A model generated the notes under the pieces. It did no database searches, was not told where the DNA came from, and saw only the letters and a list, made by a program, of their open reading frames with translations. Below, piece by piece: positions 2,851 to 43,193 of a DNA stretch of 64,000 nt. The stretch's first letter is position 1. Every line of letters begins with the position of its first letter. Origin of the DNA: Acidimicrobiia bacterium (lineage in GTDB: Bacteria; Actinomycetota; Acidimicrobiia; IMCC26256; JBMOIJ01); contig JBMOIJ010000011.1 of NCBI GenBank assembly GCA_049317385.1, positions 2,580-66,579 on the forward strand, in the 5' to 3' direction. Made by a program: the position numbers and the translations under genes.

Positions 2851-3024
2851 GTGCAAAACGATCTCGACGTCATGCGGGACGACGAAGAGCTGCGAACTGT
2901 TGATGCAGTGTTGCGCGCCCAGCGCATCGCGCTGATGCGCAATCGGATCGACGCGGGTCTGTACCGGCCGTCGGCCGATGCGGTGGCCGAGTCGTTGGTG
3001 GCCTGGGCCGCCGTCGCCAGCTGA
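2851..3024 (+). CDS. small FlgM-like (anti-sigma-28 family) protein, 57 aa
   Basis: C-terminal RAQRIALMRNRIDAGLYRPSADAVAESLV fits the FlgM pattern R..K[IV]..[LI]K..I..G.Y.[VP]....[IV]A..[LM]. GTG 2851 follows GGAG with a 6-nt spacer. The ORF is small, so this is tentative. Confidence 0.4.
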   Translation: MQNDLDVMRDDEELRTVDAVLRAQRIALMRNRIDAGLYRPSADAVAESLVAWAAVAS

Positions 3025-3062
3025 AGCGCTTCTCACTGCCATATATCCAGCTGAAAAACGCC
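3025..3062 (+). repeat. family-1 palindromic element, copy 1 (AGCGCTTCTCACTGCCATATATCCAGCTGAAAAACGCC)
   Basis: Begins directly after the TGA of the FlgM-like ORF. It differs at about 5 of 38 aligned positions from copy 2 and about 7 of 38 from copy 3. Imperfect hairpin with a 9-10 bp lower stem, a 3-4 bp upper stem and an AT-rich loop. Confidence 0.85.
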
Positions 3063-3076
3063 GCCTGCGGGCGGCG
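3059..3076 (+). other. GC hairpin CGCCGCC-TGCG-GGCGGCG overlapping the right arm of family-1 copy 1
   Basis: Perfect 7-bp stem. It shares CGCC (3059-3062) with the element arm, so the two folds compete for those bases. Confidence 0.5.
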
Positions 3077-3243
3077 GAGGCGAGCCGGTCGGCGCCGCCG
3101 CTGAACTCCGTGAGGGGCCGAACCGGGCTAGTCCGATGCCCCATCGCCCGCCGGGTATGGTCACTCCAGACGTGGACACTCCTGGCTATGCCGGTAGTCA
3201 CTCTGCGTCCCAGCACCTGGTTCGGTCGGTCGATGGAGGACCC

Positions 3244-3810
3244 GTGGACGTCGTTGTACGTGGGAAGAACTGCGTAGTGCCCGAGCGGCTGCAAGAGGTG
3301 GCGGTCGAGAAACTCCCCAAGATCAACAAGTTCGTTCACGACGTCCATCGGGCCGAGGTCGAGTTCTCCGAAGAGAAGAACCCTCGCGTCGCGAACCACT
3401 TCGTCTGCGAGATCACGGTGCACATGCCCAAGCACCTCATGAAGGCGAAGGGCGCGGCTCCCGAAGCGTTCGACGCGCTCGACCGGGCGTTGCACAAGAC
3501 CGAACAGCAGGCGGCCAAGATTCATTCAAAGCGGGTCACTCGTCGGCGGCGGGCCGCGCCGCTCGGTGTGGTGGCCAACGAAGTAGGCGCCGTCGCGGTC
3601 GAAGAGACGCCGACCGAGGAACTTCCCGAGGCGCGCATCGTCAAGACCAAGATCGTCGAGATGCTCGCCATGGACCCCGAGGAAGCGGCGCTGCGCATGG
3701 ACCTGCTCGAGCACGAGTTCTTCTTCTTCAAGAACGCGCGCACGGGCCGGGCTGCGGTGGTGTACCGCCGCAACGACGGCGACCTCGGCGTGTTGGAGTC
3801 CGAGGGCTGA
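3244..3810 (+). CDS. hpf: ribosome hibernation promoting factor, long form
   Basis: VDVVVRGKN...HKTEQQAAKIH N-domain plus the C-terminal dimerisation domain IVKTKIVEMLAMDPEEAALRMDLLEHEFFFFKN. Start is probably GTG 3244 (GGAGGA just upstream); the ORF is open from 3136. Confidence 0.88.
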   Translation: MDVVVRGKNCVVPERLQEVAVEKLPKINKFVHDVHRAEVEFSEEKNPRVANHFVCEITVHMPKHLMKAKGAAPEAFDALDRALHKTEQQAAKIHSKRVTRRRRAAPLGVVANEVGAVAVEETPTEELPEARIVKTKIVEMLAMDPEEAALRMDLLEHEFFFFKNARTGRAAVVYRRNDGDLGVLESEG

Positions 3811-3817
3811 TTCGAAC

Positions 3818-4507
3818 ATGTCGTTGCAGGTCGTTCCCGATCGTCGCGAAGTGGTGCGAGTCCTCATCGTCGACGACCATGCGCTGTTCCGGCGCGGCCT
3901 CGAGAACGTGCTGTCCGGTGAAGTCGACATCGACATCGTCGGAGAAGCAGGCGATGGCATCGAGGCGGTCAAGCGCGTCGACGAGCTCCGCCCCGATGTG
4001 GTGCTCATGGACGTACGCATGCCCAAGGCCACGGGCATCGAGGCGGCGCGACAGATCCACGAACGCTTCCCCGAGGTGAAGGTGATCATGCTCACCGTCT
4101 CCGACGACGAGGACGATCTCTTCGCCGCCGTGCGCGCTGGAGCGGCCGGCTACCTCTTGAAGGAAGTGTCCATCGAAGAGGTGGCCGACGCAGTGCGGTC
4201 GGTGTCACGGGGCCACAGCCTCATCTCGCCGTCCATGGCCACCAAGCTCCTCGCCGAGTTCAACGCGTTGTCGCAGCGGGCCGAAGAGCGGGTGCGCTCA
4301 CAGGCGCCGCGCCTCACCGACCGTGAACTCGAAGTGCTCAAGCTCGTGGCTCGGGGCGACTCCAACAAAGAGATTGCGGGCGAGCTCTTCATCGCCGAGA
4401 ACACGGTGAAGAACCACGTCCGCAACATCCTCGAGAAGCTGCACCTGCACTCCCGGATGGAGGCAGTGGTCTACGCCATGCGCGAGAAGCTCCTCGAGGT
4501 CGAATAG
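3818..4507 (+). CDS. NarL/LuxR-family two-component response regulator (no cognate kinase adjacent)
   Basis: Receiver domain VLIVDDHALFR...DVVLMDVRMP...IMLT plus a LuxR helix-turn-helix LTDRELEVLKLVARGDSNKEIA..L.I.ENTVKNHV. Confidence 0.9.
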   Translation: MSLQVVPDRREVVRVLIVDDHALFRRGLENVLSGEVDIDIVGEAGDGIEAVKRVDELRPDVVLMDVRMPKATGIEAARQIHERFPEVKVIMLTVSDDEDDLFAAVRAGAAGYLLKEVSIEEVADAVRSVSRGHSLISPSMATKLLAEFNALSQRAEERVRSQAPRLTDRELEVLKLVARGDSNKEIAGELFIAENTVKNHVRNILEKLHLHSRMEAVVYAMREKLLEVE

Positions 4508-4522
4508 TCCCGGTTGGCCGCT

Positions 4523-4538
4523 CCCGGACGAATCCGGG
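4523..4538 (+). terminator. small hairpin CCCGGA-CGAA-TCCGGG downstream of the response-regulator gene
   Basis: Perfect 6-bp stem with a GNRA-like loop, 16 nt after the stop. No U-tract follows. Confidence 0.3.
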
Positions 4539-4545
4539 CGACTCC

Positions 4546-4551
4546 TAGAAT
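4546..4551 (+). promoter_or_regulatory. candidate -10 hexamer TAGAAT upstream of secA
   Basis: CCTAGAATCG. The hexamer ends 12 nt before ATG 4564, and there is no SD in between, so the transcript would be leaderless or have a very short leader. Confidence 0.35.
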
Positions 4552-4563
4552 CGGCACTCGCAT

Positions 4564-7257
<2,694 letters not shown>

Positions 7258-7260
7258 CGC

Positions 7261-8361
7261 GTGCGTGATTTCACCGATGATCTGCGCGCATTGTCGCGCC
7301 GAGCCGACGAAGCGGCTGGGTACTTGCGTATCGATGAGTCCCGCGAGCGCCTGGCCGAACTCGAAGCCGAAGCCGCACGTCCCGACCTTTGGGACGATCC
7401 CGAGGTCGCGCGCAAGGTCACCACGGAACTGTCGCGTGTCGGCGATGACGTGAAGTTGGTCGAGGCGCTACAAGCGCGCGTGGCCGATCTCGAGATGCTG
7501 CACGAGCTCGCTCGGGAAGAGGGTGACGAGTCCCAGGAGCCCGAGATCGCGAACGAGATCATCGAAGTCGACCACGAACTCAACCTGCTCGAACTGCGCG
7601 CGCTGTTCACCGGTGAGTACGACGAGCGTGACGCCATCGTGGAAATCAACTCGGGCGCCGGCGGAACCGATGCGGCCGACTGGGCCGAGATGATGTTGCG
7701 CATGTACATCCGCTGGGCGGAACGGCGTGGGTTCGCTGTCGAGATCGAGCAGGTGCGCGAGGGCGAAGAGGCCGGCATCTCATCGGCGACCTTCACGGTG
7801 AAGGGGCGCTACGCGTACGGTCTCCTGTCGGCCGAGCGGGGAGTGCACCGGCTGGTGCGTATCTCGCCCTTCGACGCGAACGCCCGTCGCCAGACCAGCT
7901 TTGCGTCACTCGACTTGGTGCCGGTGATCGAAGAGACCGAGGCGCCTGAGATCGAAGACAAGGACCTGCGGGTCGACACCTATCGCTCGAGCGGTGCGGG
8001 CGGTCAGCACGTCAACAAGACCGACTCTGCGGTGCGGCTCACGCACATTCCCACGGGGATCGTCGTGGCGGTGCAGAACGAGCGCAGTCAGACGCAGAAC
8101 AAGGCGAAGGCCATGCAGATCTTGGCGGCGCGCCTCGCTGAGCGTCAGCGCGAAGAGCGTGAGGCCGAGATGGCGGCCATCAAGGGCGAGAAGCGTGACG
8201 TTGGTTGGGGGAGTCAGATCCGCAGCTACGTGTTGGCGCCGTATCAGTTGGTGAAAGACCTGCGCACCGACCATGAGACGGGCAACGTGCAGGCGGTGCT
8301 CGACGGTGACCTCGATGCCTTCATCGAGGCATTCCTGCAATGGCGCCGTGCCAACGCCTGA
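7261..8361 (+). CDS. prfB: peptide chain release factor 2 (single uninterrupted frame)
   Basis: Contains the SPF tripeptide (RISPFD) and GGQ motif (SGAGGQHVNKTDSAVRLTHIPTG). GTG start. There is no internal in-frame TGA. Confidence 0.95.
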   Translation: MRDFTDDLRALSRRADEAAGYLRIDESRERLAELEAEAARPDLWDDPEVARKVTTELSRVGDDVKLVEALQARVADLEMLHELAREEGDESQEPEIANEIIEVDHELNLLELRALFTGEYDERDAIVEINSGAGGTDAADWAEMMLRMYIRWAERRGFAVEIEQVREGEEAGISSATFTVKGRYAYGLLSAERGVHRLVRISPFDANARRQTSFASLDLVPVIEETEAPEIEDKDLRVDTYRSSGAGGQHVNKTDSAVRLTHIPTGIVVAVQNERSQTQNKAKAMQILAARLAERQREEREAEMAAIKGEKRDVGWGSQIRSYVLAPYQLVKDLRTDHETGNVQAVLDGDLDAFIEAFLQWRRANA

Positions 8362-8404
8362 GGCGGCGCTTCTGACTGTCATATAGCCAGTTGAAAAACG
8401 CCTC
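8362..8404 (+). repeat. family-1 palindromic element, copy 2 (GGCGGCGCTTCTGACTGTCATATAGCCAGTTGAAAAACGCCTC)
   Basis: Begins directly after the prfB TGA. It fills the whole 46-nt spacer to the convergent Ntn-hydrolase gene (stop at 8408). Confidence 0.85.
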
Positions 8405-8407
8405 CGG

Positions 8408-9382
8408 TCACACCTCGGGCAGGAACGCGAACGGCTCGGCCGGCTCGAACTCGGCCGACACCTCGCCCGCTCGAATGGGCCCGTCCTCGGCCACCAGCTT
8501 GAGGACGGGTGCCCCCACGGAGAGGTCCACGCTGGCGAGGTCGACCCAGAAGACGTTGGGGGAGCGGGTCGACTCGAAGTAGTACGTGCGGGTCCCGTGG
8601 TCGGCGACCACGCGCCACAGCGTGGGCGCAATGTTGGGGAGCCCGCTCAACGTCGCGCCCCACGGGACAGAAACGTTGCGAATGAGCGAGAACATCGTGG
8701 CGACCGCGGTGATGGTGTCGTCAGTCGGTTCCACGAGCGACAGGTAGTACGACGCGCGTACGAAGCGGTCGGACGCGCGCTCGGTGCCCGGCAGCATGGC
8801 CTGACCGCCGATCTCGTTCCAGTACGTGGTGAGTGCGAGTTGCTCTTCGAAGTGCGGCTCGTTGGTGGTGACCCGGTAGTCGTAACCGTGGTGAATGCGC
8901 ATGGCCCCGTCAATGAACTCAACGATTGCGTTGTCGCCAGTGGCGTCGACCACTGTGAGATGCACCGTGGGTGCGAAGCCGCCGGGCAGCGCCGGTGACA
9001 CCAACTGGAACGGGTCTTCGCGAAGCGCCGCTACAGCCTCGGCGGTCGTGGCGAACGAGTCGAGGACCCACTGGGCCCAGGCGCCGACGGCGAGGCCCGG
9101 CCGTGTTTCGTCACGCGCCGGGTAGATCGTGGAGGACAAGTACAAGACGCTGGCTGCGAGCCCGGCGTCATTGATGCCGTCGACGGTGGCGCCGTCATAC
9201 ATGCTGGCCACCACGCTGCCGTGTTGGGCGGTCCACTCGAACGAGTTGGTCTTGGCCGCCCCGTGCCGGTGCAGGCCCGCCGGCAATACCCAGAGGTTGG
9301 CCTGGGAGGGCAGCATCCAGTCCAGGGTGCGCCCCGTGATGAGGGTGGTGCCGGTCCCCCGGTAGGTGATCCGACTGCACAT
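8408..9382 (-). CDS. choloylglycine hydrolase / linear amide C-N hydrolase family (Ntn hydrolase)
   Basis: Starts MCSRITYRG.. with the N-terminal nucleophile Cys2, then TGRTLDW and DGINDAGL. I place the start at ATG 9382 rather than ORF start 9580 because the family needs Cys at position 2. Confidence 0.85.
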
Positions 9383-9582
9383 GGAGGGCGAGGCTAGGTG
9401 GTCAGCGGGGTGGCGCCGACCACCACGAAGGCCGCCGGTTCCCGGCCCTGGAACCGCGTTTTGCCCGGTCAGGGGCAAGGTCCGCCACTCGCGTGCCCAG
9501 AGGGCCGACACTGGTCTTCCCGGGGGTGCTGGTACCCTCGACCGGTCACGGAGGCCCACCTCCGGGGCCACCACACTCAACG

Positions 9583-11307: not shown

Positions 11308-12531
11308 ATGCTCCGGTTGCTTCTTCGACGACTCCTCCCCATGCTGGTCGCGGTCGGCTCCATCGCCGCCACCGCCGTAGCCGTCCCCGCGCTCGCCGAG
11401 CGCGCCGACGCGCGTCCCATGGCGGGCAACGACCAGCGCATCGCTGACCTGCAAGGGCTCGTCGACGAGACCACCCAGGACCAGGCCGACGCGCTGAAGC
11501 AGTACCTCGAGGTGAAGGGGCGCAAAGACGCCGCCGACGCCCGGGTTGCCGATGCTGCCGGTCGCACTGCTGCGGCCGCAGCGGTGCTGCAGAACGCGCA
11601 GCTGCAGGTGAACACCGCGAACCAGAAGATCGCCGACACCGAGCGCAAGATCGCCCGCAACGAGACCGAGCGCAAGAGCGCGGCGGCCACGTTCAAGGCC
11701 GCGGCGATTCGCCGGTACATCAACGCGTGGTCGGGTCAGCCGGGCCCGGTCAGCCGCGAGGAGATTCCCGACTACACGCAGCGAGCCGTCGGCGACCGGT
11801 ACCTGAGGGCCGTAGCCGCGAAGGAAGACCGGGAAGTGCAGCGGTTCCTCCAACTCATCGAGGACGGCAAGCAAGAGCGCGCCCGCCTCGACTCCCAGCG
11901 GGTGCAACTGAAGGTTGCCCAGGACCGGGCTGCGGAAGAAGCCGGTCGGGTGCGGGCGATCCAGGTCGAAGAGGAAGCGGCGCGTGCCGTGGTGGCGCAA
12001 GAAGCGCTCGCCGAGAAGCGCGTGGTCGATTCTCTCAGTGCAAAGAAGGCGTCGTACGAGAGCGAGTTGCGCGCGCTCGAGGCGTCGTCGAACGCAATCC
12101 GCAACCAGCTCTCGTCGGGATCTCGCGGGATTTCCGTCGCCAAGGGCAGCGGGCAGTTCCGGCGGCCCGTCGACGGCCCCATCACCAGCCTGTTCGGACC
12201 TCGCATGCATCCCATCTTCAAGGTGGTGAAGATCCACTCCGGGATCGACTTCGGCGTTGCAACCGGTACCCCCATTCGGGCGGCGGGAAACGGCACATGT
12301 GTGTTCAACGGCGTGATGAGCGGCTACGGGAACGTGGTCGTCGTCGATCACGGCGGTGGGCTCGCCACCTTGTATGCGCACCAGAGCCGCACTGCGTGTG
12401 CATCGGGCACGCGCGTCTCGGCGGGTCAGGTCATCGGGTACGTGGGGAGCACCGGCAACTCCACGGGCCCGCACCTGCACTTCGAGGTGCGTGCGAACGG
12501 CACGCCCGTCGACCCCATCCCGTACCTCTAG
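11308..12531 (+). CDS. secreted coiled-coil M23 peptidase (EnvC/PcsB-like partner of FtsEX)
   Basis: Signal peptide MLRLLLRRLLPMLVAVG..ALA, a long Ala/Gln/Arg-rich coiled coil, and a C-terminal LytM domain HSGIDF...GNVVVVDHGGG..T.YAHQS...GSTGNSTGPHLHFEV. The start is uncertain (the ORF is open from 11203). Confidence 0.85.
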   Translation: MLRLLLRRLLPMLVAVGSIAATAVAVPALAERADARPMAGNDQRIADLQGLVDETTQDQADALKQYLEVKGRKDAADARVADAAGRTAAAAAVLQNAQLQVNTANQKIADTERKIARNETERKSAAATFKAAAIRRYINAWSGQPGPVSREEIPDYTQRAVGDRYLRAVAAKEDREVQRFLQLIEDGKQERARLDSQRVQLKVAQDRAAEEAGRVRAIQVEEEAARAVVAQEALAEKRVVDSLSAKKASYESELRALEASSNAIRNQLSSGSRGISVAKGSGQFRRPVDGPITSLFGPRMHPIFKVVKIHSGIDFGVATGTPIRAAGNGTCVFNGVMSGYGNVVVVDHGGGLATLYAHQSRTACASGTRVSAGQVIGYVGSTGNSTGPHLHFEVRANGTPVDPIPYL

Positions 12532-12545
12532 TCCGGGCAATGCAA

Positions 12546-12569
12546 AGGCGGGCGCCGGAGCGCCCGCCT
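12546..12569. terminator. bidirectional GC hairpin AGGCGGGCGC-CGGA-GCGCCCGCCT
   Basis: Perfect 10-bp stem with a 4-nt loop, centred in the 59-nt spacer between the convergent M23 peptidase and peroxiredoxin genes. Confidence 0.55.
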
Positions 12570-12590
12570 GCATCCCGAATCGCTCGCCGG

Positions 12591-13226
12591 TTACTTGTTG
12601 GGCTGGGGCACGATGCGCAGGTACGGCTTCACCGCGTTCCACCCGTCGGGGAACTTCACCTTCGCGTCCTCGTCGGAGACCGCGGCAGCGATGATGACAT
12701 CGTCGCCGTCCTTCCAGTTGACCGGAGTGGCCACCGAGTAGTTCGCAGTGAGCTGCAACGAGTCGATGACGCGCAGGATCTCGTCGATGTTGCGACCGGT
12801 GGAAGCCGGGTAGGTGAGGATGAGCTTCACCTTCTGGTCGGGGCCCACGATGAACACCGAGCGCACGGTCTGGGTGTCGTTCGCGTTCGGGTGGATCATG
12901 TCGTAGAGGCCGGCCACGGTGTGGTCGGGGTCGGCGATGAGCGGGTAGTTGAGCGCGGTGCCCTGGGTTTCTTCGATGTCGCCGATCCAGTCGCGGTGGC
13001 TCTCGATGGGGTCGATGGAGACCCCAATGAGTTTCACGTTGCGCTGGTCGAACTCGGCCTTGCGCTTGGCGAACGCGCCGAGCTCGGTGGTGCAGACCGG
13101 TGTGAAGTCACGCGGATGCGAGAACAGGATGCCCCAGCCGTCGCCGAGGTACTCGTGGAAGTTCACCGTGCCGTCGGTGGTTTCGGCGGTGAAGTTGGGG
13201 GCTTCGTCGCCCAGCCGGATTGCCAT
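12591..13226 (-). CDS. 1-Cys peroxiredoxin (Prx6 type)
   Basis: LGDEAPNF, then WGILFSHPRDFTPVCTTEL containing the peroxidatic Cys. 211 aa. Confidence 0.95.
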   Translation of the reverse strand: MAIRLGDEAPNFTAETTDGTVNFHEYLGDGWGILFSHPRDFTPVCTTELGAFAKRKAEFDQRNVKLIGVSIDPIESHRDWIGDIEETQGTALNYPLIADPDHTVAGLYDMIHPNANDTQTVRSVFIVGPDQKVKLILTYPASTGRNIDEILRVIDSLQLTANYSVATPVNWKDGDDVIIAAAVSDEDAKVKFPDGWNAVKPYLRIVPQPNK

Positions 13227-18906: not shown

Positions 18907-20418
18907 TCAGCGCGGGTCGCGGCGGGTGACGGGCCCAACTCCGGTGAGGATCGTTCCGGTCAACGTGCGGTCGGCATGGCGAAGTCGCCACGACAGCATT
19001 CGTTGGGCGTATTCGAGGGTCTTGGGGGACGTGTGGGCCACGTTGTGGAGCTGCTCGGGGTCGGCGTCCAGATCGAAGAAGATCGGTTCCTGGGCGGCGA
19101 AGTGCACGTACTTGCCGTGACGGTCGCGAATGACGGCGATCGCGCACTCTTCCATCGTGATGCCAAATGCGTCCTCGGCCATGTGGGCAACCGGGTCGCG
19201 GAAGTCCCACTCCCAATGCACGGCGTCGCGCCAGCGCCCGGGGGTGTGGCCGTGGACCCATGGCAGGACCGATGTGCCGTCGCACTGGAGCGGCACTTCG
19301 TGACCGATCCATTCCAGGATGGTTGGCATCACGTCGATGTTCTCGGTGAATTCGTCGATGACGGTGCCTCGGGTTCCGTTCGCCGCCGCACGCGGGTCGT
19401 GCACGATGAGCGGCACGTGGTAGCTGGAGTCCCACCAGCCGAGTTTCTGCAACAACCAGTGATCACCGAGCATTTCGCCGTGGTCGCTGGTGACGACGAT
19501 GAGCGTGTCGTCGAGGACGCCCGCGGTTTCGAGTTGGTCCAAGAGTCGGCCGACCTGCGCGTCGACTTCGCTCACCATGCCGTAGTACGTGGCGCGCAGC
19601 TGCCGGAGTTCGCGCTCGTCGTCACCGATGGTGATTTCGGGGACGGACAGGATCACACCGAGCCCGGGGTGTTGTTCGGCTTCGGTGGCGCGAGTGGCCG
19701 CGCGCACGGGCATGGGGACGTCGGCCGGGTCGTACTGGTCGTGGTACGGCGCCGGGGCCACGAACGGGGGGTGCGGTCGGATGAACGCCACGTGGGCAAA
19801 CCACTCGCCTTCTTGGCGGTGTAGCCATTCGCCGAACCGCTCCACCGCGAACGCGGCTTCGGAGTGCTCGGCGGCGTATCGCGTGGGGGCCCAGCTGGAT
19901 GCGTGGTCGGCGGCGCCGGGGTACCACCGATCGGGCTCGTAGATGTCGCGCACGTTCGCTGGCACGTCGTATCCGTGCTCGGCGAGCCATGCGCCCCACG
20001 GTTCGAGCGTCTCGACCAACAGCAGTTCGGGGCGAAAGCCGGGGAGCACCCCTTCGTACGTGGTGAGGCGCGGGTCGCCGGCTGCCACGGTGCGCGGGTC
20101 GACGGACGTGTCGGTGTACCCGAACAGCACCGGGTCGTAGCCGGCGGCGCGGGCTTCGAGCGCCACGTTGGTGAAGCGGGCGTCGAGCGGGGTGCCGTTC
20201 AGTACGGACCGGTGGTTCATTCCGTACATCCCCGTGTGCAGAGATGCACGGCTGGGTCCGCACGGCGCCATTTGCACGTAGTGCGACGCGAAGGTGGTGC
20301 TGCGAGCGGCCAGGCGGTCGAGGTTGGGGGTCTGGATGGGCGTGCGCCCCGCGGCCAGGATTCCCAGTGCATCGGCTCGCCATTGGTCGAGCGTGACGAA
20401 GAGGACATTGCCCGGCAT
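18907..20418 (-). CDS. sulfatase (Cys-type formylglycine arylsulfatase family)
   Basis: MPGNVLFVTLDQWRAD, the FGly motif APCGPSRASLHTG, and SDHGEMLGDH. ATG 20418 gives 503 aa. The rest of the 885-aa ORF upstream is antisense to the next gene. Confidence 0.9.
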   Translation of the reverse strand: MPGNVLFVTLDQWRADALGILAAGRTPIQTPNLDRLAARSTTFASHYVQMAPCGPSRASLHTGMYGMNHRSVLNGTPLDARFTNVALEARAAGYDPVLFGYTDTSVDPRTVAAGDPRLTTYEGVLPGFRPELLLVETLEPWGAWLAEHGYDVPANVRDIYEPDRWYPGAADHASSWAPTRYAAEHSEAAFAVERFGEWLHRQEGEWFAHVAFIRPHPPFVAPAPYHDQYDPADVPMPVRAATRATEAEQHPGLGVILSVPEITIGDDERELRQLRATYYGMVSEVDAQVGRLLDQLETAGVLDDTLIVVTSDHGEMLGDHWLLQKLGWWDSSYHVPLIVHDPRAAANGTRGTVIDEFTENIDVMPTILEWIGHEVPLQCDGTSVLPWVHGHTPGRWRDAVHWEWDFRDPVAHMAEDAFGITMEECAIAVIRDRHGKYVHFAAQEPIFFDLDADPEQLHNVAHTSPKTLEYAQRMLSWRLRHADRTLTGTILTGVGPVTRRDPR

Positions 20419-20481
20419 CGCTGTCACAGTACGGGAACGTTCGCTGCGGTGGGGGCGTTGGCATCGGTGAGGAGGTGAGCG

Positions 20482-21582
20482 GTGTTCAGCGGAATCAAGG
20501 TCGGACGGATTCGGGGTATCCCAGTCGTCGTGAACTGGACGCTGCTCATTGCCGGCGCGCTCTTCACGTACCTGCTGGCCACGAGTCAGTTCCCGCTGGC
20601 GGCGCCGGGCGCGGCTGCGGCCGAGTACTGGGTTGCGGGCGCAGTGGGTGCGTTCCTGTTCTTCGTGTGTGTGGGTGCCCATGAGCTGTCGCACTCGGTG
20701 GTCGCGCAGCGCAACGGCGTGACCGTTGAACGCATCACCCTCTGGTTGCTCGGCGGCGTGGCGCAGCTGTCGGGGCGCGTCGGCACTGCGGGGGCCGAGT
20801 TCCGGATCGCGATCGCCGGCCCGCTGATGTCGGTGGCGCTGGGTGCCGCGTTCGGTGGGGTGAGTTGGGCGCTGGTTGCGCTCGGCGCGCCCGACGTGAT
20901 GGTGGCGTTGTTCGTGTGGCTGGCCATCATCAACGTGGTGCTGGCCGTGTTCAACCTGGCGCCGGCGGCGCCGCTCGACGGCGGGCGCGTGCTGGCGGCC
21001 GCGCTGTGGGCCGTGTGGCGCGACAAGGCGCGTGCCCAACTTGCTGCGGCGAACGTCGGTCGTGTGTTCGGCGTGTTGTTGTGCGCGCTCGGCGTGGCGA
21101 TGTTCTTCATAGGTGAGAGCGGTCTGTGGTTCATCTTGTTGGGGTGGTTCGTCTTTGCAGTGGCTACGGCCGAACGGCGCGTGGCGCGCCTCGAGCGCGC
21201 GGTCGGCACTGCCACGGTGCGGGAGGTCATGAACCCGCATCCGGTCACCGTTCCCGGTTGGATCACCGTCGACTACTTCTGGTCGAGCCCGCCGCTGGGG
21301 CACCACCACGTGTATCCGGTGGCGCGTTGGGAAGGCGGGGTGCATGGCGCAGTGCGCGTCGAGCGGCTCGACCAGGTGCCCTTGGGAGCGCGCACGTCGG
21401 TGCGGGTGCAGGATCTGGCCGACCCGGCACCCGAGGCGCGTCCCGATGAACTCGTCGTCGACGTGTTGGAGCGGGCGAACGGGCCGTTGTTGATGGTCGT
21501 CGAGGGCGGCCAGCTGGTCGGCGTGGTCACCGCGGAGGACCTGCTGCGCCTGCAAAGTGGGCAATCTGCGTCAACCGTCTAG
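20482..21582 (+). CDS. site-2 protease family (M50) metalloprotease with C-terminal CBS pair
   Basis: HELSHSVVA (HExxH), [11 protein letters not shown], and a C-terminal CBS-like region ([12 protein letters not shown]..., [19 protein letters not shown]). Confidence 0.85.
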
Positions 21583-21671: not shown

Positions 21672-23498
21672 ATGACCGCGCGCAATGACCTGCGCAACGT
21701 CGCGATCGTCGCTCACGTCGATCACGGCAAGACCACTCTCGTCGACGCCATGTTGTGGCAGACCGGCGCATTCCGAGCCAACCAAGAGGTTGCCGAACGC
21801 GTCATGGACTCCAACGACCTCGAGCGCGAGAAGGGCATCACCATCCTCGCCAAGAACACGGCGGTTCGGTGGAACGGCACCAAGATAAACGTGGTCGACA
21901 CGCCGGGCCACGCCGACTTCGGCGGCGAGGTGGAGCGCGCGCTCACCATGGTCGATGGTGTCTTGCTGTTGGTTGATGCAAGCGAAGGGCCGTTGCCGCA
22001 AACGCGTTTCGTGTTGCGCAAGGCGCTGGCCGCACGGCTGCCCGTGGTTCTGGTGATCAACAAGGTCGACCGACCCGACGCGCGTGTGAAGGAAGTGGTG
22101 CACGAGGTCGAAGAGCTGTTCCTCGACCTCGACGCCGACGAGCACCAGATCGAGTTCCCCATCGTGTACACGAACGCGAAGGCCGGCACGGCGTCGCTGA
22201 CGGCCGAAGAGCAGTCGGCCGACCTCACGCCGTTGTTCGAAATGCTGGTCGAGCACATCCCTGCACCTGAGTTCGAAGACGGTCACCCGCTGCAGGCGCT
22301 GGTCACCAACCTCGACGCGTCGCCGTACGTCGGTCGTCTCGCGTTGTGCCGGGTGATCAACGGCACGATCACCAAGGGCCAGAACATTGCCTGGTGTCGT
22401 ACCGACGGTTCGGTCGAGCGGGCCAAAGTGGCCGAGCTCTACGTGACCGAGTCGCTCGATCGTGTCGACGTGGCCGAGGCCGGTCCGGGCGAGATCATCG
22501 CCGTCGCCGGTTTACCCGAGGTCATGATCGGCGAGACGCTCGCCGACCCCGACGACCCGCGTCAGCTGCCGGTCATCACGGTCGACGAGCCGAGCTTGTC
22601 GATGACCATCGGGATCAACACCTCGCCGCTCGCCGGCAAGGATGGAAAGAAGCTCACGGCGCGACTGGTGAAAGCGCGTCTCGACCAGGAACTCATCGGC
22701 AACGTGAGCTTGCGCGTGTTCCCCACGGATCGGCCCGACGCATGGGAAGTGCAGGGGCGCGGTGAGTTGCAGCTCGCCGTGTTGGTCGAAACGATGCGCC
22801 GTGAGGGCTTCGAACTCACGGTCGGCAAGCCCGAGGTGCTCATCCGCGAGATCGACGGCAAGCGCCACGAGCCCGTCGAGCGCGTCACCATCGATGTCCC
22901 CGAGGACTACCTGGGTACTGTCACGCAGCTCATGGCGGTGCGCAAGGGCCGCATGCTTGAGATCGTGAACCACGGCACGGGTTGGGTACGCGTCGACTTC
23001 ATCGTGCCGGCACGGGGGCTCATCGGGTTCCGTACCGAGTTCCTCACCGAGACGCGCGGTACCGGCATCCTCAACTCGGTGTTCGAGGGGTGGGAGCCGT
23101 GGGCGGGCGAGATCCGGTCGCGGCACACGGGTTCGCTCGTGGCCGACCGCACGGGTGTCACCACCACGTACACGCTGATGACGTTGCAGGACCGTGGCAC
23201 GTTGTTCGTGGGTCCGGGTGTCGATGTGTACGAGGGCATGGTCATTGGTGAGAACCCGCGTGCCGAGGACATGGACGTCAACCCCACGAAAGAGAAGAAG
23301 CTCACCAACGTGCGGTCGTCAACGGCCGATGAGCTGGAGCGGCTCACTCCGCCGAAACAGATGACGCTCGAAGGGGCACTCGAGTTCCTGGCCGCCGACG
23401 AGTGCGTCGAGGTCACCCCCGAGACGGTGCGGATGCGCAAAGTGGTGCTGGACCAGAACACCCGGGGCCGGGAGCGCAAGCGCGCCAAATCCGACTGA
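21672..23498 (+). CDS. typA: translational GTPase TypA/BipA
   Basis: [36 protein letters not shown]. 608 aa. Confidence 0.97.
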
Positions 23499-23538
23499 GG
23501 CGTTTCTCACTGTCACATACCCAGCTCAGAAACGCCTC
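23497..23538 (+). repeat. family-1 palindromic element, copy 3 (GAGGCGTTTCTCACTGTCACATACCCAGCTCAGAAACGCCTC)
   Basis: Overlaps the typA TGA (23496-98) and contains the stop and last four codons of the convergent SGNH gene (23526-). The arms GGCGTTTCT/AGAAACGCC are a perfect match. Confidence 0.85.
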
Positions 23539-24278
23539 GAATTCGTGAGGGCGGACTGGACGACTGGTGTGACGGCCTCGGCCCACAGGCGGTAGCCGTC
23601 GTCGTTGGGGTGGAACCCGTCGGCGGCGAAGTACGGCTCAGGGTTGCGGTGGAACTCGTCGTTGGGGTCACCGTGGATGTTCACGAACGCATTCCCGCGC
23701 TCCGTTGCCAGTGACCGGACCTCGCGGTCGAGCACTCCCGAGTACCAACCGGCGAGGGCGCGCAGCGGCATCGGGAGTCGGGGTGACGTGGAGAAGTCGG
23801 GGCAGCCGAGCATCACGACCAAGGCGTGGTGCGGAATCGCATCGAGCGCAGCTTCGTACTCGCGCCGGAACGTGCTGGGCCGCGCAAAGTGCGTCACGTC
23901 GTTCGCACCCACGCTGATGCACACGAGGTCGCAACGCGCCGGCAGTGCGCGCACTTGAATGGACCGGACGTCCGCGACTCGCGCGCCGGACCACCCGAGC
24001 ATCTGTAGCTCCACCGGTCGTTGGAGTGCCTGGGCGACGCGACGGGCCACGGTGGTGTCGGCGGAATCGGAGCCGATTCCGGCCGCGGTGGAATCGCCGA
24101 GCCAGGCCATGTGAAGCACGTCGCCGTGTGGTGGCCCGATCCGGCCGTCGATCCCCAGGTCGGTTTCGGGGATGAGCGTGCCGTTGCGCCGGGCGTGTCG
24201 AACCTGCGCGGCCAACGTGGCGAACACTGCCACCGGGATGGCAGCGGTGATCCCGAGTGTGCGGCGGACGCGTCCCAT
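23526..24278 (-). CDS. SGNH/GDSL hydrolase family protein
   Basis: MAWLGDSTAAG (block I GDS), SVGANDV (block III), and a C-terminal DGFHPN (block V). Start taken at ATG 24278 (MGRVRR..., signal-like). The last codons overlap repeat copy 3. Confidence 0.8.
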   Translation of the reverse strand: MGRVRRTLGITAAIPVAVFATLAAQVRHARRNGTLIPETDLGIDGRIGPPHGDVLHMAWLGDSTAAGIGSDSADTTVARRVAQALQRPVELQMLGWSGARVADVRSIQVRALPARCDLVCISVGANDVTHFARPSTFRREYEAALDAIPHHALVVMLGCPDFSTSPRLPMPLRALAGWYSGVLDREVRSLATERGNAFVNIHGDPNDEFHRNPEPYFAADGFHPNDDGYRLWAEAVTPVVQSALTNSRRF

Positions 24279-24424
24279 CTGCGAGACCCTAGGACTGGCC
24301 CGCCCGAAACGGGCGCTGGGCCTGACGTGGCATACTTCTACGTCCCTCGTTACCGAATCGTCCGTCGGCGCGGTCGTTGGTGTGGTCTTCACACGAACGT
24401 CGCCGAGCGCCGCCAGGGAGTGAC

Positions 24425-24907
24425 ATGGCCGGGTTCAAGGTCGGAGATCGCGTCGTCTACCCCCACCACGGGGTGGCGGTCATCAAGAAGAAGGAGAACA
24501 TCGTGTTCTCCGGTGAGAAGACCGAGTATCTCGTGCTCCAGATGGTGCACGGCGAGATGACGGTGCGCGTCCCGTCGGCGAAGGCCGAGGAAGTGGGCAT
24601 GCGCCCGCCCATCAGCGTTGAAGACGTCGAGGACTTGTTCCGACTCATCCGCAAGCGCGACGTGCGGGAGCCGGCTAACTGGAGCCGTCGCTTCAAGAAC
24701 CACCAAGAGAAGATGAAGTCGGGCGACGTGTATCAGATCGCCGAAGTGGTCCGGAACCTTGCGCTGCGTGACAAGACCAAGGGTCTGTCCACCGCCGAGA
24801 AGTCGATGCTGGAAAAGGCGCGCGGCATCTTGGTCTCCGAGCTGTCGTTCGCGCTCGATCTCAGCGAAGACGACGCGCTCGTGAAGCTGAACGAAGGCCT
24901 CGAGTAA
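24425..24907 (+). CDS. carD: CarD-family RNA-polymerase-binding transcription regulator
   Basis: MAGFKVGDRVVYPHHGVAVI...EYLVLQM...MTVRVP...NWSRRFKNHQEKMKSGD. Confidence 0.95.
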   Translation: MAGFKVGDRVVYPHHGVAVIKKKENIVFSGEKTEYLVLQMVHGEMTVRVPSAKAEEVGMRPPISVEDVEDLFRLIRKRDVREPANWSRRFKNHQEKMKSGDVYQIAEVVRNLALRDKTKGLSTAEKSMLEKARGILVSELSFALDLSEDDALVKLNEGLE

Positions 24908-24918
24908 TCCACTCTGCT

Positions 24919-24938
24919 GGCGGCGCGTCGACGCCGCC
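24919..24938. terminator. GC hairpin GGCGGCG-CGTCGA-CGCCGCC
   Basis: Perfect 7-bp stem between convergent carD (stop at 24907) and the beta-propeller gene (stop at 24941). Confidence 0.45.
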
Positions 24939-24940
24939 GA

Positions 24941-26197
24941 TCAGCTCAGTTCTGCGCGTCGCAGGTAGCTGTGGCCCTGGTACGCGGAGTAGTACACGAC
25001 CGGACGCCCGCCCTCGGTGGTCGCAGTTGCGTAGCTCCCCGCATCGGTGAAGCCGGATCCGCTGGATCCGTTGACGCCGTCGAGCATCCGGAAACTCCAC
25101 GTGCCGTTCGAGAGCATGGCCTGGCGCAAGGTGCTCCCAGAGATCGGTACCGATGCGTAGTACACGCGCAATGCCGTGCCCGCGACCGTGGTCGAGACCC
25201 CTCGGTAGCCCACGGTTTGGGTGGTTCGGCCGGGGTACGTGGAGCTGGGTCCGTCGAGGTTCTCGGCGGTCCAGGCACCGCCGGCGAAGCGCATGTGGCG
25301 GAGGTCCCCCTTCGCTGTGTTGTGCGCAAAGACGTGCGTCTCGTTGTTGTAGGCGGCCACGGCCACACTCCCGCCGACGGGGTCGGTGGTGCGACCGGCA
25401 ACGTTGCTGTTGGCGCCGTCGACGTTCTTGAATGTCCACGTGTTGCCGCACCGCTTGGCGACGCGCACGCCGATCGCTTGGAGTCCGGACGAGTAGGTGT
25501 CGTACACGGCCAGTAGACAGCCGGCGCTGTCGACGCCAGCTGCGGTGGTCCGTCCCGAATTCTTCAGCGTGCGGCCGGGAGTCACCGAGACCGGGCCGTC
25601 GAGCCATTCGTAGGACCACGTGGTGCCGTCGTACCACGCATGACGGACCGAACGGGTGGCGTTGTCGGAGTAGAAGACGTGCACCTGGTTATTGAAGACC
25701 ACTGCGGATGATCCGGAGCCGACGTTGTTGGTTGTGCGCCCGAGGTAGCCGGCTTGGATTCCGTCGATGTATTCGAGGTACCAGTTAGAACCGATCAGGT
25801 ACGCATGACGCAAGGACCTCGTGGATCCGTCCCAGTAGAACGCGTGGAGGACCGACCCCAGCGTGACTGCCGACGGGTACTCACCCATCTGGCGGCCGGT
25901 GGTGGCCGGGTCCTCGCCACCGAGTCCGTCGATGGTTTCGATCTGCCATCCGCTGTTGGTCTTGTAGGCGTGCCGCACTCCTGAAGGCGTGGTGCGGTTC
26001 TGGTAGATCACGTGCTGGACGCCGTTGACGCTGGCAGTTGCCGATTGCGGTCCCACCGATGTGTTGACGTGGCCGGGAACTGTGCCGCCGCCATCGAGGG
26101 TCAGGTACTTCCACGACGCAGCGGATGCCGGGGCGCCGCTCACAGTTGCCAGCATCGTTGCGGCCAGCATGGCTGGGAGGGTCAGACGTCGCAGCAT
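24941..26197 (-). CDS. secreted 7-bladed beta-propeller repeat protein (lectin-like)
   Basis: Sec signal MLRRLTLPAMLAATMLATVSGAPASA, followed by seven repeats of about 50-55 aa with the pattern W..E.[LI]DG...GRT...G...A......HVFY......LRHA. Confidence 0.75.
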   Translation of the reverse strand: MLRRLTLPAMLAATMLATVSGAPASAASWKYLTLDGGGTVPGHVNTSVGPQSATASVNGVQHVIYQNRTTPSGVRHAYKTNSGWQIETIDGLGGEDPATTGRQMGEYPSAVTLGSVLHAFYWDGSTRSLRHAYLIGSNWYLEYIDGIQAGYLGRTTNNVGSGSSAVVFNNQVHVFYSDNATRSVRHAWYDGTTWSYEWLDGPVSVTPGRTLKNSGRTTAAGVDSAGCLLAVYDTYSSGLQAIGVRVAKRCGNTWTFKNVDGANSNVAGRTTDPVGGSVAVAAYNNETHVFAHNTAKGDLRHMRFAGGAWTAENLDGPSSTYPGRTTQTVGYRGVSTTVAGTALRVYYASVPISGSTLRQAMLSNGTWSFRMLDGVNGSSGSGFTDAGSYATATTEGGRPVVYYSAYQGHSYLRRAELS

Positions 26198-40944: not shown

Positions 40945-41304
<360 letters not shown>

Positions 41305-41406: not shown

Positions 41407-41456
41407 GACTTTGCGTCGCAAACAGCCGCTATTTTGGCAGTTTGCGACGCAAAGTC
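41407..41456. terminator. family-2 hairpin, copy B: GACTTTGCGTCGCAAAC-16 nt-GTTTGCGACGCAAAGTC
   Basis: Perfect 17-bp arms. It lies 75 nt downstream of the CBM/beta-helix gene stop and about 100 nt upstream of the tmRNA 5' end. Confidence 0.6.
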
Positions 41457-41531: not shown

Positions 41532-43193
41532 TCAGGGCCCGGTGTTCGTGGGCCAGTAGAGGATGTTCACCAGCCCGTTCGAGTCGGCTTCCGCTCGGTT
41601 CGGCGGCGCCGGGATCGTCACGCCGGTCGGCGCGTACGTGGTGGTCACCTGCCGGTTCCCGGTCCACCCGTCGATGTTGGCGAACGCCTGCTTCCAGTAC
41701 GTCGCCCAGCTCGGTCCGGGCGGGTTCATCAACATCGGACCGAAGTCGTTGTTGATTGCGGTCACGTGGCCTTGGTTGCCGCTCAGGCTCGGAGTCCACG
41801 TTGCACCGGATCCGGATGCGCTCTGCACGTACAGGGTGATGTTCCAACCGCCCAGGAAGTTGCCCTCGAGGCGGAGGTAGGTGTCACCGCCGATCGGTTG
41901 CATGAACACTGCTGCGGTCTGCCAGCCGGTGTTCGAGCCGGGCTCGAAGTGGTTGTGTCGCACATTGAAGTACCCGCCTCCGGTCACGCCGGCGAACATC
42001 GACTCGACGTGGCCGCCAAAGTACGAGTGCAGGTTGTGCACGATTCCGTTCTCGACGTACGCCGGTCGGGTGGCATCTGGGCCACCACCGAGGGCGATGC
42101 CGGTCTGCGCTCCGGAGATGTCGAAGTTGGTGAGCCGGTGTTGGCCGCGCCCGGCGAACACGCCGTGCGATTCTGTCGACGACATGCCCGTCTCGTTGCC
42201 GTTCCACTTCACGGTGAGAGCGTCGGCGTCGAGCGTGCCGTTCGTTCGCACGAAGCGGTAGTCGCCGTAGCCACCGATCACTTCGACGTTCCGCAGCGTC
42301 AGCGTGCCGCCTCCGGTGTGCACGACTGCCCCGTAGACCCGCGCGTTGGACAGTAATGCGTTCGTGTCGCTGAGGACGAGCGCACCGTTGGCCGGTCGGA
42401 TCTCCGTGGTGATCAGCGCCGGGTTGGCGCCGCGCACGTCGGTGCGCTTGGGGTAGGCCGTGACCGCACTTGGTGCGGGCGCAGTGGTGGTCGTTGGCGC
42501 CGCGGTCGTGGTTGGTGCGGCGGTGGTCGTTGGCGCCGCGGTCGTGGTTGGTGCGGCGGTGGTCGTTGGCGCCGCGGTCGTGGTCGGCGCGCTGGTCGTC
42601 GACGTAGACGACGAGGTCAGCCCGCCCAGCCGCAGCCAGTCCAGGTTCAGGTAGTTGGCGCTGGCAGCGTTCCATGAGTGCACGACGGAGATCGTGTTCG
42701 TCCCCGCTCCGAGCGACAGGTTCACGGTTTCGGTCCGCCAGGTCGACCAGTTGGCCGTTGCCGGCAGCGACCAGGTGTTCATGACGACCGCACCGTTCAC
42801 TTTGAGTTGGCGAGCCGCACCGCTGGGTGCCGCCGAGTAGCGGATCGTGAAAGGATAGGTCCCGGCCTTCGGCACCGCGAACGACGCCGTAACGTACTGT
42901 CCGTCGCCGAGCCAGCAGCAGCGGTATCCAGTGCCTTCATAGCCGGGCCAACGGGTCTCGGTTCCGATGTTGGACGCAGCGTTCTCGGCTTGCACGGTGA
43001 CGGCGGTCGTGGTGGGCTGCGACCGACGCAGTGCGGTTGGCTGTGCGTTGGCTTTGGTTGATGTCGTAGTCGGTGATGCTGGCGCCTCTGCGCACGCCGC
43101 AACCAGCGACGCCGAGGCGATCATCACCCCCAAAACGATGAGTCGTGAGCGGCGCGCAAGGCGCGCGCGACCGCCTGGAAATTTCGTGTCCAT
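41532..43193 (-). CDS. secreted lipoprotein: CBM6/35-like carbohydrate-binding module, (AAPTTT)n linker, right-handed beta-helix domain
   Basis: Lipobox SLVAAC. The CBM-like part is VQAENA...GY.G.GY...G.YPFTIRYSA....RQLKVNG...W..W....V.L..G.N.I. Six AAPTTT units follow, and the C-terminal half has beta-helix-like NxxVxG repeats. Confidence 0.75.
   Translation of the reverse strand: MDTKFPGGRARLARRSRLIVLGVMIASASLVAACAEAPASPTTTSTKANAQPTALRRSQPTTTAVTVQAENAASNIGTETRWPGYEGTGYRCCWLGDGQYVTASFAVPKAGTYPFTIRYSAAPSGAARQLKVNGAVVMNTWSLPATANWSTWRTETVNLSLGAGTNTISVVHSWNAASANYLNLDWLRLGGLTSSSTSTTSAPTTTAAPTTTAAPTTTAAPTTTAAPTTTAAPTTTTAPAPSAVTAYPKRTDVRGANPALITTEIRPANGALVLSDTNALLSNARVYGAVVHTGGGTLTLRNVEVIGGYGDYRFVRTNGTLDADALTVKWNGNETGMSSTESHGVFAGRGQHRLTNFDISGAQTGIALGGGPDATRPAYVENGIVHNLHSYFGGHVESMFAGVTGGGYFNVRHNHFEPGSNTGWQTAAVFMQPIGGDTYLRLEGNFLGGWNITLYVQSASGSGATWTPSLSGNQGHVTAINNDFGPMLMNPPGPSWATYWKQAFANIDGWTGNRQVTTTYAPTGVTIPAPPNRAEADSNGLVNILYWPTNTGP
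42486..42593 (-). repeat. 18-nt tandem repeat (two alternating codon variants giving a 36-nt super-unit) encoding (AAPTTT)6
   Basis: GGTGGTCGTTGGCGCCGC and GGTCGTGGTTGGTGCGGC alternate perfectly from 42486 to 42575, and the last unit is degenerate. The repeat lies inside the CBM/beta-helix CDS. Confidence 0.9.

Follow-up and report, generated by a model that had tools for sequence, protein, structure and literature searches.

The closest described counterparts of the element reported here are the repetitive extragenic palindromes (REPs) and the TRITs, motifs named for "Tuberculosis Rho-independent terminator". REPs lie mostly between convergent or unidirectional open reading frames (ORFs), less than 20 bp from their 3' ends; REP termini often supply the stop codon, G-T pairs are common in the stems and occurrence among relatives is patchy (PMC3733652). 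TRITs are conserved palindromes placed narrowly at about -8 from stop codons, with 147 per 4.4 Mb, and have been reported from Mycobacterium only (PMC3152330). We analysed a 64,000-nt stretch of the genome of an Acidimicrobiia bacterium (assembly GCA_049317385.1, contig JBMOIJ010000011.1; "the window" below means the whole of this stretch) in which three copies of an imperfect palindrome each start at the TGA stop codon of a + strand gene. Our preferred reading, to which we give a rough probability of 0.55, is that the sites belong to a small family of dispersed extragenic palindromes that is REP-like, analogous to TRITs and confined to a single Acidimicrobiia lineage. REPs and TRITs are well known in Proteobacteria and Mycobacterium, but next to nothing of this kind has been described from Acidimicrobiia, a class of Actinomycetota that is abundant and uncultured.

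A repeated palindrome at gene 3' ends

The copies in the window are as follows.

3022-3065, + strand: copy 1, starting at the TGA of a flgM-like gene; the stem base is degenerate, and the arms contain two C.A mismatches on the + strand that are G.U on the - strand
8359-8405, + strand: copy 2, starting at the prfB TGA, with a 3-nt GCG/GGC insertion in the left arm
23496-23540, + strand: copy 3, starting at the typA TGA; the best-paired copy, with an 11-12 bp lower stem

The preliminary description of this DNA had presented these sequences as one element repeated in the same orientation, and this was confirmed: all three sequences are exact as quoted, and the TGA at the start of each is the stop of a genuine + strand gene. 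GC skew is positive across the whole window. The copies have a 37-nt core in common, with pairwise identities of 81-89%. When the window was searched with a degenerate 37-nt consensus allowing up to three mismatches, exactly three sites were found compared with 0.00 expected (100 shuffles), and the imperfect-palindrome architecture is kept at each of them. A scan of the window with covariance model R1, run with filters off, gave no further close copy, and the palindrome is the sole genuine dispersed repeat family within the 64 kb. Both the arm word and the loop motif are confined to the elements within the window, which indicates that the unit is the whole imperfect palindrome of ~40-46 bp and not a shorter word. 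A DNA uptake sequence (DUS)-like word was ruled out on the same ground, i.e. the arms never occur alone.

Of the 47 stops in the window, 36 are TGA; the choice of codon thus carries no information, and the informative trait is the exact abutment. All known locations are at gene 3' ends, either between convergent stops (copies 2 and 3) or in a tandem spacer after a stop (copy 1).

Beyond the copies first described, the element was found in a sister strain and in a metagenome contig, L084. Searching the JGI metagenomes with a 19-position pattern gave five matches, of which the one in L084 is real and the other four are low-GC chance matches. The L084 copy (761-806) fills a 45-nt gap between convergent ligA and a 197-aa ORF; its arms are perfectly paired, and a T-A pair where copy 3 has C-G represents a compensatory change. 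On both strands, the left flank reads TGA(A/G)GCG and the right flank CGCC(T/G)C. The right-hand flanks of the four copies (GCC, TCC, TCG and TCA) are palindromic to TGA and are not direct repeats; they look like decayed mirror images of TGA, which suggests an ancestral TGA...TCA unit.

Searches of wider collections returned no other copies. A 22-position pattern had 0 matches in 185,579 representative genomes, and plasmid blastn gave only chance matches of 19-21 nt. Viral contigs searched with a 14-position pattern contained only chance or coding matches, so no phage link emerged. With Rfam 15, only the tmRNA and one tRNA reached the gathering score in the window, and a permissive search around copy 1 gave best E-values of 0.7-1, to unrelated small RNAs; the initial impression that the element belongs to no known RNA family was therefore upheld at both thresholds. 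In integron attC sites, an imperfect palindrome lies behind a cassette ORF and is bordered by the R''/R' core sites, RYYYAAC ... GTTRRRY. On inspection the element was rejected as an attC site because its arm ends are unlike this core and its neighbours are housekeeping genes in conserved synteny.

The genes next to the three copies are as follows.

2851-3024, + strand: flgM-like small gene (anti-sigma-28 family), 57 aa (PF04316, E 2e-6); its TGA abuts copy 1
3244-3810, + strand: hpf, long-form ribosome hibernation factor (PF02482 and PF16321 homologues), ~180 nt downstream of copy 1
7261-8361, + strand: prfB, release factor 2 (RF2; PCRF/RF-1 in a syntenic relative); its TGA (8359-8361) abuts copy 2
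8408-9580, - strand: CBAH-family hydrolase (Pfam), stop at 8408-8410, convergent with prfB
21672-23498, + strand: typA/bipA; its TGA abuts copy 3, and the C-terminus has the same length as in relatives
23526-24392, - strand: GDSL lipase (Pfam), convergent with typA

Copy 2 fills the 46-nt gap between the convergent prfB and CBAH-family genes, which is essentially the length of the element. At copy 3, the right arm takes in the final four codons of the GDSL lipase gene together with its stop (23526-23528). The other convergent gaps in the window (12531-12591 and 24907-24941) contain unique GC-rich hairpins, which suggests that the element occupies an ordinary 3'-hairpin niche. Some convergent genes in this genome are only 1 nt apart.

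Presence and absence at orthologous sites

Copies 1 and 3 are retained in a sister strain. Copy 1 is kept with one loop substitution in a strain with 99% identical Hpf (L086:2901-2944), and copy 3 is unchanged in sister-strain contig L227, where a separate gene call likewise places the end of the GDSL lipase within the element. The divergence of copy 1 between the sister strains (1/44 nt) is no lower than that of the flanking spacer. L227, a short-read contig, begins 4 nt ahead of copy 3; short-read assemblies may break at the repeat, which would hide further metagenome copies.

In more distant relatives the element is missing from the corresponding positions. It is absent from the flgM-hpf spacer of L087 and L088 (84% Hpf) and of L097 and L099 (66% Hpf), all four of which conserve the flgM-hpf arrangement, the downstream leader blocks and the Shine-Dalgarno region. 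The flgM-like gene is called in relatives too, and its ...AS-TGA end is kept where the element is absent. Similarly, the element does not follow typA in L222, L223 or L224 (84-86% TypA), where the typA stop is TAA or TAG and is followed by unrelated GC hairpins. The vacant sites of these relatives hold either unrelated GC hairpins or nothing recognisable as a counterpart. There were 0 copies in a 21.5-kb contig (L097 + L225, 85% TypA) that is collinear with the window from ~2,800 to 23,500, and a scan of 1.48 Mb of typA neighbourhoods from other Actinomycetota with models R1 and R2 also gave 0 copies. One marginal match from the latter scan (L050, E 0.03) was judged to be chance without a check for coding. 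At both flgM and typA, the element in the window starts precisely where the native stop lies. With its patchy occurrence at orthologous sites, the element looks like a REP-like dispersed repeat and not like a conserved cis-regulator, and by these sequence comparisons it appears to be young and lineage-restricted and not a conserved part of the hpf leader.

Other features of the typA region also differ between relatives. An 885-aa sulfatase gene beside typA (18907-21564, - strand) has no counterpart in the otherwise collinear contig L225, and the genes after typA vary, with a GDSL lipase in the window and DUF222/HNH or DUF5122 genes elsewhere; together these mark the 3' side of typA as a rearrangement hotspot. 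Two TypA calls, P0122 (L220:10001-12376, 791 aa) and P0123 (L221:2181-4529, 782 aa), have a duplicated or permuted N-terminal half. They were discarded as closest TypA relatives, as their bit scores are inflated by the internal duplication and their identity is only 71-83%, and the duplicated gene calls are probably assembly artefacts.

Two further palindromes might belong to the family. The first lies in the window.

41407-41456, - strand: low-GC palindrome (arms of 21 bp, loop of 8 nt), possibly a divergent relative

This palindrome, GACTTTGCGTCGCAAACAGCC gctatttt GGCAGTTTGCGACGCAAAGTC, is flanked on one side by the tmRNA gene (40946-41304) and on the other by a CBM6/35 gene of the - strand whose stop is at 41532. 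Read on the - strand, it has the centre AAACTGCCAAAATAGCGGCTG, which is similar to that of the family, CACTGTCAAATAGCCAGCTG. Model R2 scores the palindrome at 16.6 bits (E 0.07), and it is lacking upstream of the tmRNA in relative L222. The second is a near-perfect, low-GC palindrome with 22-bp arms and the loop ACTATTG, which separates tRNA-Leu from a His_Phos_1 gene in a relative with 86% TypA identity (L222:767-817 and L223:337-387). It shares GCGTT.CT.A / T.AG.AACGC with the family arms and CAATAG with the loop, and model R1 matches the L223 palindrome with E = 0.003. It is missing in L224, where the orthologous spacer is ~60 nt shorter. On these resemblances, homology of both cousins to the family is plausible but not proven. 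Within the CBM6/CBM35 protein gene (41532-43193, - strand), ~6 tandem 18-nt units at 42478-42619 are presumably a repetitive linker.

Pairing was evaluated in alignment A4, which includes the L222/L223 cousins and leaves out 41407-41456. Standard pairs made up 87.7% of the pair cells compared with 34-46% in slid controls, and seven pairs change on both sides, most of this signal being from a single lineage. RNA folding, single-stranded DNA folding and symmetric protein binding cannot be told apart when a palindrome simply remains palindromic.

Similar palindrome designs are present in Solirubrobacterales metagenome-assembled genomes (MAGs), i.e. a low-GC TGAAGG...CCTTCA palindrome between convergent genes (L031:11841-11878) and one whose TGA is the stop of a 772-aa ORF (L060:5702-5741). 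Long low-GC palindromes also occur at L056:12788-12832, L061:12762-12804, L063:15179-15218, L077:2195-2240 and L079:1914-1967. Among these palindromes from typA neighbourhoods of high-GC Actinomycetota, several adjoin stops and several have loops containing ATAG; arm motifs common to some of the genomes are GTCCTTT...AAAGGAC and CCGCAACAGC.... A scan for low-GC hairpins was too noisy at -14 kcal/mol, and at -21 kcal/mol it showed other lineages' own families. The terminal signature TGARG...CYTCA matched five times over all loci compared with 0-3 in shuffles, an enrichment that we consider unconvincing. It is conceivable, though improbable, that the element is one branch of a set of low-GC, stop-abutting palindromes that spans classes of Actinomycetota, has an ATAG-containing loop and is served by a dedicated factor.

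The neighbours of the copies bear on a different explanation, in which the element is a double-stranded DNA site for a dimeric protein (an operator, or a nucleoid or recombination site), perhaps linking the translation-related genes hpf, prfB, typA and ssrA. The loop and centre, CTGYCAYATANCCAG, are as conserved as the arms, which would suit such a site, as would the position of hpf, prfB and typA next to the copies, of the tmRNA gene next to one possible relative, and of the L223 cousin 46 nt upstream of a tRNA-Leu gene. However, loop conservation is expected anyway in recently copied repeats, three of the four sure copies are in convergent gaps, which offer no promoter to control, the neighbours in L084 are ligA and an unknown ORF, and the element is lost at the orthologous sites of relatives while the genes remain. 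A 40-bp unit with an asymmetric bulge would also be atypical for an operator. We therefore consider a protein-binding site very unlikely. On inspection for CRP- or parS-like operators, only partial half-site resemblance was seen, and these candidates were set aside. The link to ribosome-associated genes, noted at the outset as a possible coincidence, is weak in view of the L084 neighbours and of copy 1, which abuts the flgM-like gene; a little of it survives in the possible relatives beside the tmRNA and tRNA-Leu genes.

Folding, strand and the region upstream of hpf

The 37-46-bp unit forms a hairpin under both RNA and DNA folding parameters. With RNA parameters, the energies on the + strand were -6.0 kcal/mol for copy 1 (z -0.37), -15.9 for copy 2 (z -2.5) and -19.3 for copy 3 (z -5.3), and those on the - strand were -17.2, -18.4 and -23.8 kcal/mol, respectively; DNA parameters gave the same ranking. 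The common fold originally drawn for all three copies holds as described on the + strand for copy 3, whereas copies 1 and 2 carry their two C.A mismatches on that strand. The advantage of the - strand in copies 1 and 2 was correctly anticipated and arises because the two C.A mismatches turn into G.U.

These energies raise the possibility that the functional transcript is that of the - strand, either as a 3' hairpin of - strand genes or as a small or antisense RNA read from that strand. In its favour, all three copies have the more stable RNA fold on the - strand, a convergent gene reads into copies 2 and 3 and the L084 copy on that strand, and at copy 1 the - strand has a GC hairpin followed by UUUUU. 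Nevertheless, copy 1 has no - strand gene upstream of it, hpf being on the + strand, and the inverted orientation of the possible relative at 41407-41456 is that of the - strand gene upstream of it, so that orientation seems to follow the upstream gene and not one fixed strand. The L223 cousin has the opposite mismatch asymmetry, and the arm mismatches common to copies 1 and 2 may be one inherited event. The functional - strand transcript put forward in the preliminary description is consequently not favoured, and we regard it as improbable.

No U-tract follows the element on either strand, and it is therefore not a canonical intrinsic terminator. A scan for canonical terminators detected only the GC hairpin plus T5 on the - strand at copy 1, and copies 2 and 3 have no T-run. 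This site (3054-3076) draws the TTTTT behind its GC hairpin from the copy 1 arm and received the score of a canonical terminator; there is no - strand gene upstream of it.

3059-3076, strand not assigned: GC-rich hairpin, CGCCGCC TGCG GGCGGCG, overlapping the right arm of copy 1

The GC hairpin is probably a local 3' hairpin of flgM. Because it shares CGCC with the element, and the two structures cannot both form fully, it had been proposed that they compete about 170 nt upstream of hpf. The hairpin exists and does overlap the right arm, but the competition does not hold up: in the minimum free energy structure of 3022-3080 on the + strand, the GC hairpin forms instead of the lower stem of the element. 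With copy 1 folding at only -6 kcal/mol (z = -0.37), there is no real contest between the two. The broader explanation, that copy 1 is a cis-regulatory RNA in the hpf leader whose alternative folds control hpf, has in its favour the shared CGCC and the position of hpf ~180 nt downstream. It is largely refuted by the absence of the element upstream of hpf in the 84% and 66% relatives, where the conserved blocks lie further downstream (3123-3136, 3154-3163 and 3193-3244). Moreover, copy 1 is located at the 3' end of flgM, and the other copies are not upstream of any + strand gene. We consider a role in the hpf leader extremely unlikely.

Three blocks upstream of hpf are conserved with the 84% relatives: CCGGGCTAGTCCGA at 3123-3136, GGGTATGGTC at 3154-3163 and GGTAGTCACT at 3193-3202. 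The CCGGGCTAGTCCGA block is a perfect palindrome in L087, CCGGACTAGTCCGG, and the GGGTATGGTC block is a possible -10-like box. These blocks downstream of the element are candidates for the real hpf promoter or operator. The gene order of the window at 2851-8361 is conserved in sister strain L086 and in the 66% relative L097, namely flgM-like gene, hpf, LuxR-type response regulator, secA and prfB; L087 (84%) has flgM, hpf and the regulator in common, followed by an unannotated 240-aa ORF instead of secA. It is unusual for hpf to be directly preceded by an anti-sigma-28-like gene, and the arrangement may be a hint that hibernation is under alternative-sigma control.

If the element is a REP-like repeat, its copies would have arisen by DNA-level copying or insertion and would survive only where they are harmless, i.e. 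right after stops in a compact genome. There they would be transcribed within the 3' untranslated region of the flanking gene or genes, and the hairpin could act as a local 3'-end structure, either as a barrier to 3'->5' exonucleases or as an insulator against read-through. Copy 1 would be a partly decayed passenger beside a separate GC hairpin, outside the regulation of hpf.

Function may not be needed to account for the pattern. The element could be selfish or neutral repeated DNA, a miniature mobile or gene-converted palindrome whose insertions elsewhere are lethal and which has no function as RNA or as a protein site. The presence and absence at orthologous sites is what such DNA would show, copy 1 has a degenerate stem base, an insignificant + strand fold and a divergence between sister strains no lower than that of its spacer, and stops would be the only tolerated place in a genome where convergent genes can be 1 nt apart. 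However, pairing has been kept through a compensatory change in L084, copies 1 and 2 have C.A / G.U mismatches instead of random ones, and the element takes exactly the niche that unique GC hairpins take elsewhere. In addition, neither a transposase among the window ORFs nor a target duplication was seen. This explanation is unlikely on balance. A further proposal is that exact abutment to the stop codon is itself part of the mechanism and did not arise as a side effect of selection; an ancestral unit with TGA...TCA at its ends would then insert precisely at stops or act on the terminating ribosome. We consider this improbable; if it were true, a hairpin within the footprint of a ribosome on UGA could act next to hpf, prfB (RF2 reads UGA), typA and the tmRNA gene.

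Comparison with known repeat and 3'-end systems

Several results weigh against a REP-like family. The flgM-hpf spacer is 219 nt in the window (3025-3243), in L086 and in L087 (1043-1261), although L087 lacks the element, and a simple insertion does not explain this constancy. No transposase, RAYT, IS200-like gene or integrase was detected by Pfam among the ~50 window ORFs, no target-site duplication is visible at the elements, and neither strand of the element carries the unpaired GTAG or CGTC tag of REPs. Only four independent sites are known (the three in the window and the one in L084). The + strand fold of copy 1 is no better than that of shuffled sequences, so at least this copy may be without RNA function. 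Finally, there is little overlap between predicted TRITs and mapped transcript 3' ends in M. tuberculosis (bioRxiv 10.1101/2022.06.01.494293), which leaves the 3'-end role of such motifs itself unproven and keeps the selfish or neutral explanation alive.

A recent family of low copy number with intact empty sites provides material on how repeats spread without an obvious transposase. The family also bears on how high-GC bacteria without U-tract terminators mark transcript ends, and on whether a hairpin that touches the stop affects translation termination. For annotation it is a caution, as the element supplies or overlaps stop codons, e.g. at the C-terminus of the GDSL lipase.

Correia, ERIC and MIRU are examples of miniature inverted-repeat transposable elements (MITEs) and small bacterial repeats. 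The element resembles MITEs in being small and non-coding, in its inverted-repeat symmetry, in its presence or absence among relatives and in some overlap with stops or starts. It differs in having neither a target-site duplication nor separate terminal inverted repeats around a distinct core, and at ~45 bp it is much shorter than most MITEs.

The element is like an intrinsic terminator, or an I-shaped hairpin, in forming a stable hairpin directly after a stop codon. Unlike these it has no U-tract, the middle of its stem is AT-rich and its sequence is repeated and not unique. Mycobacterial RNA polymerase needed a U-tract in vitro, and 3' structures lacking one have been proposed to be RNA stabilisers or processing stops that act once termination has taken place downstream, and not terminators (PMC3993855).

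The resemblance to REPs is closer. Like REPs, the element is a short imperfect palindrome at dispersed extragenic sites, between convergent or unidirectional genes and a few nucleotides from ORF 3' ends; its terminus supplies or abuts a stop, its stem has mismatches of the G-T/G-U type, and the family is species-restricted and patchy among relatives. The unit (37-46 bp) is slightly longer than is typical of REPs (20-40 bp), with a longer, bulged stem (~16 bp) and a conserved AT-rich loop of 9 nt, and no dimers or clusters were seen. REPs flank an associated RAYT (Y1 transposase) gene, and none was found among the ~50 window ORFs. REPs from E. coli that lie within ~15 nt of the stop codon reportedly stall terminating ribosomes, as Liang, Rudd and Deutscher are said to have described in 2015. 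The hairpin of our element likewise starts inside the footprint of a ribosome on the stop codon, and we treat this likeness as a lead only. Actinomycetota are not among the phyla listed for REPs (PMC3733652).

With TRITs the element has in common the conservation of both sequence and structure, a tight placement at stop codons that is mostly bidirectional, and a host that is a high-GC actinobacterium poor in canonical terminators. The window contains three copies and one possible relative in 64 kb; the densities are similar, at 147 per 4.4 Mb for TRITs and 3 per 64 kb for the element. The resemblance is functional only. The host is an Acidimicrobiia MAG and not a Mycobacterium, TRIT has no Rfam entry, and the terminator function of TRIT is itself doubtful. 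Given that the element carries no GTAG or CGTC tag, that no RAYT is in view, that its phylum is unlisted for REPs and that TRIT is reported from Mycobacterium only, we have filed it as a new family, one that works like REPs and TRITs and is a member of neither.

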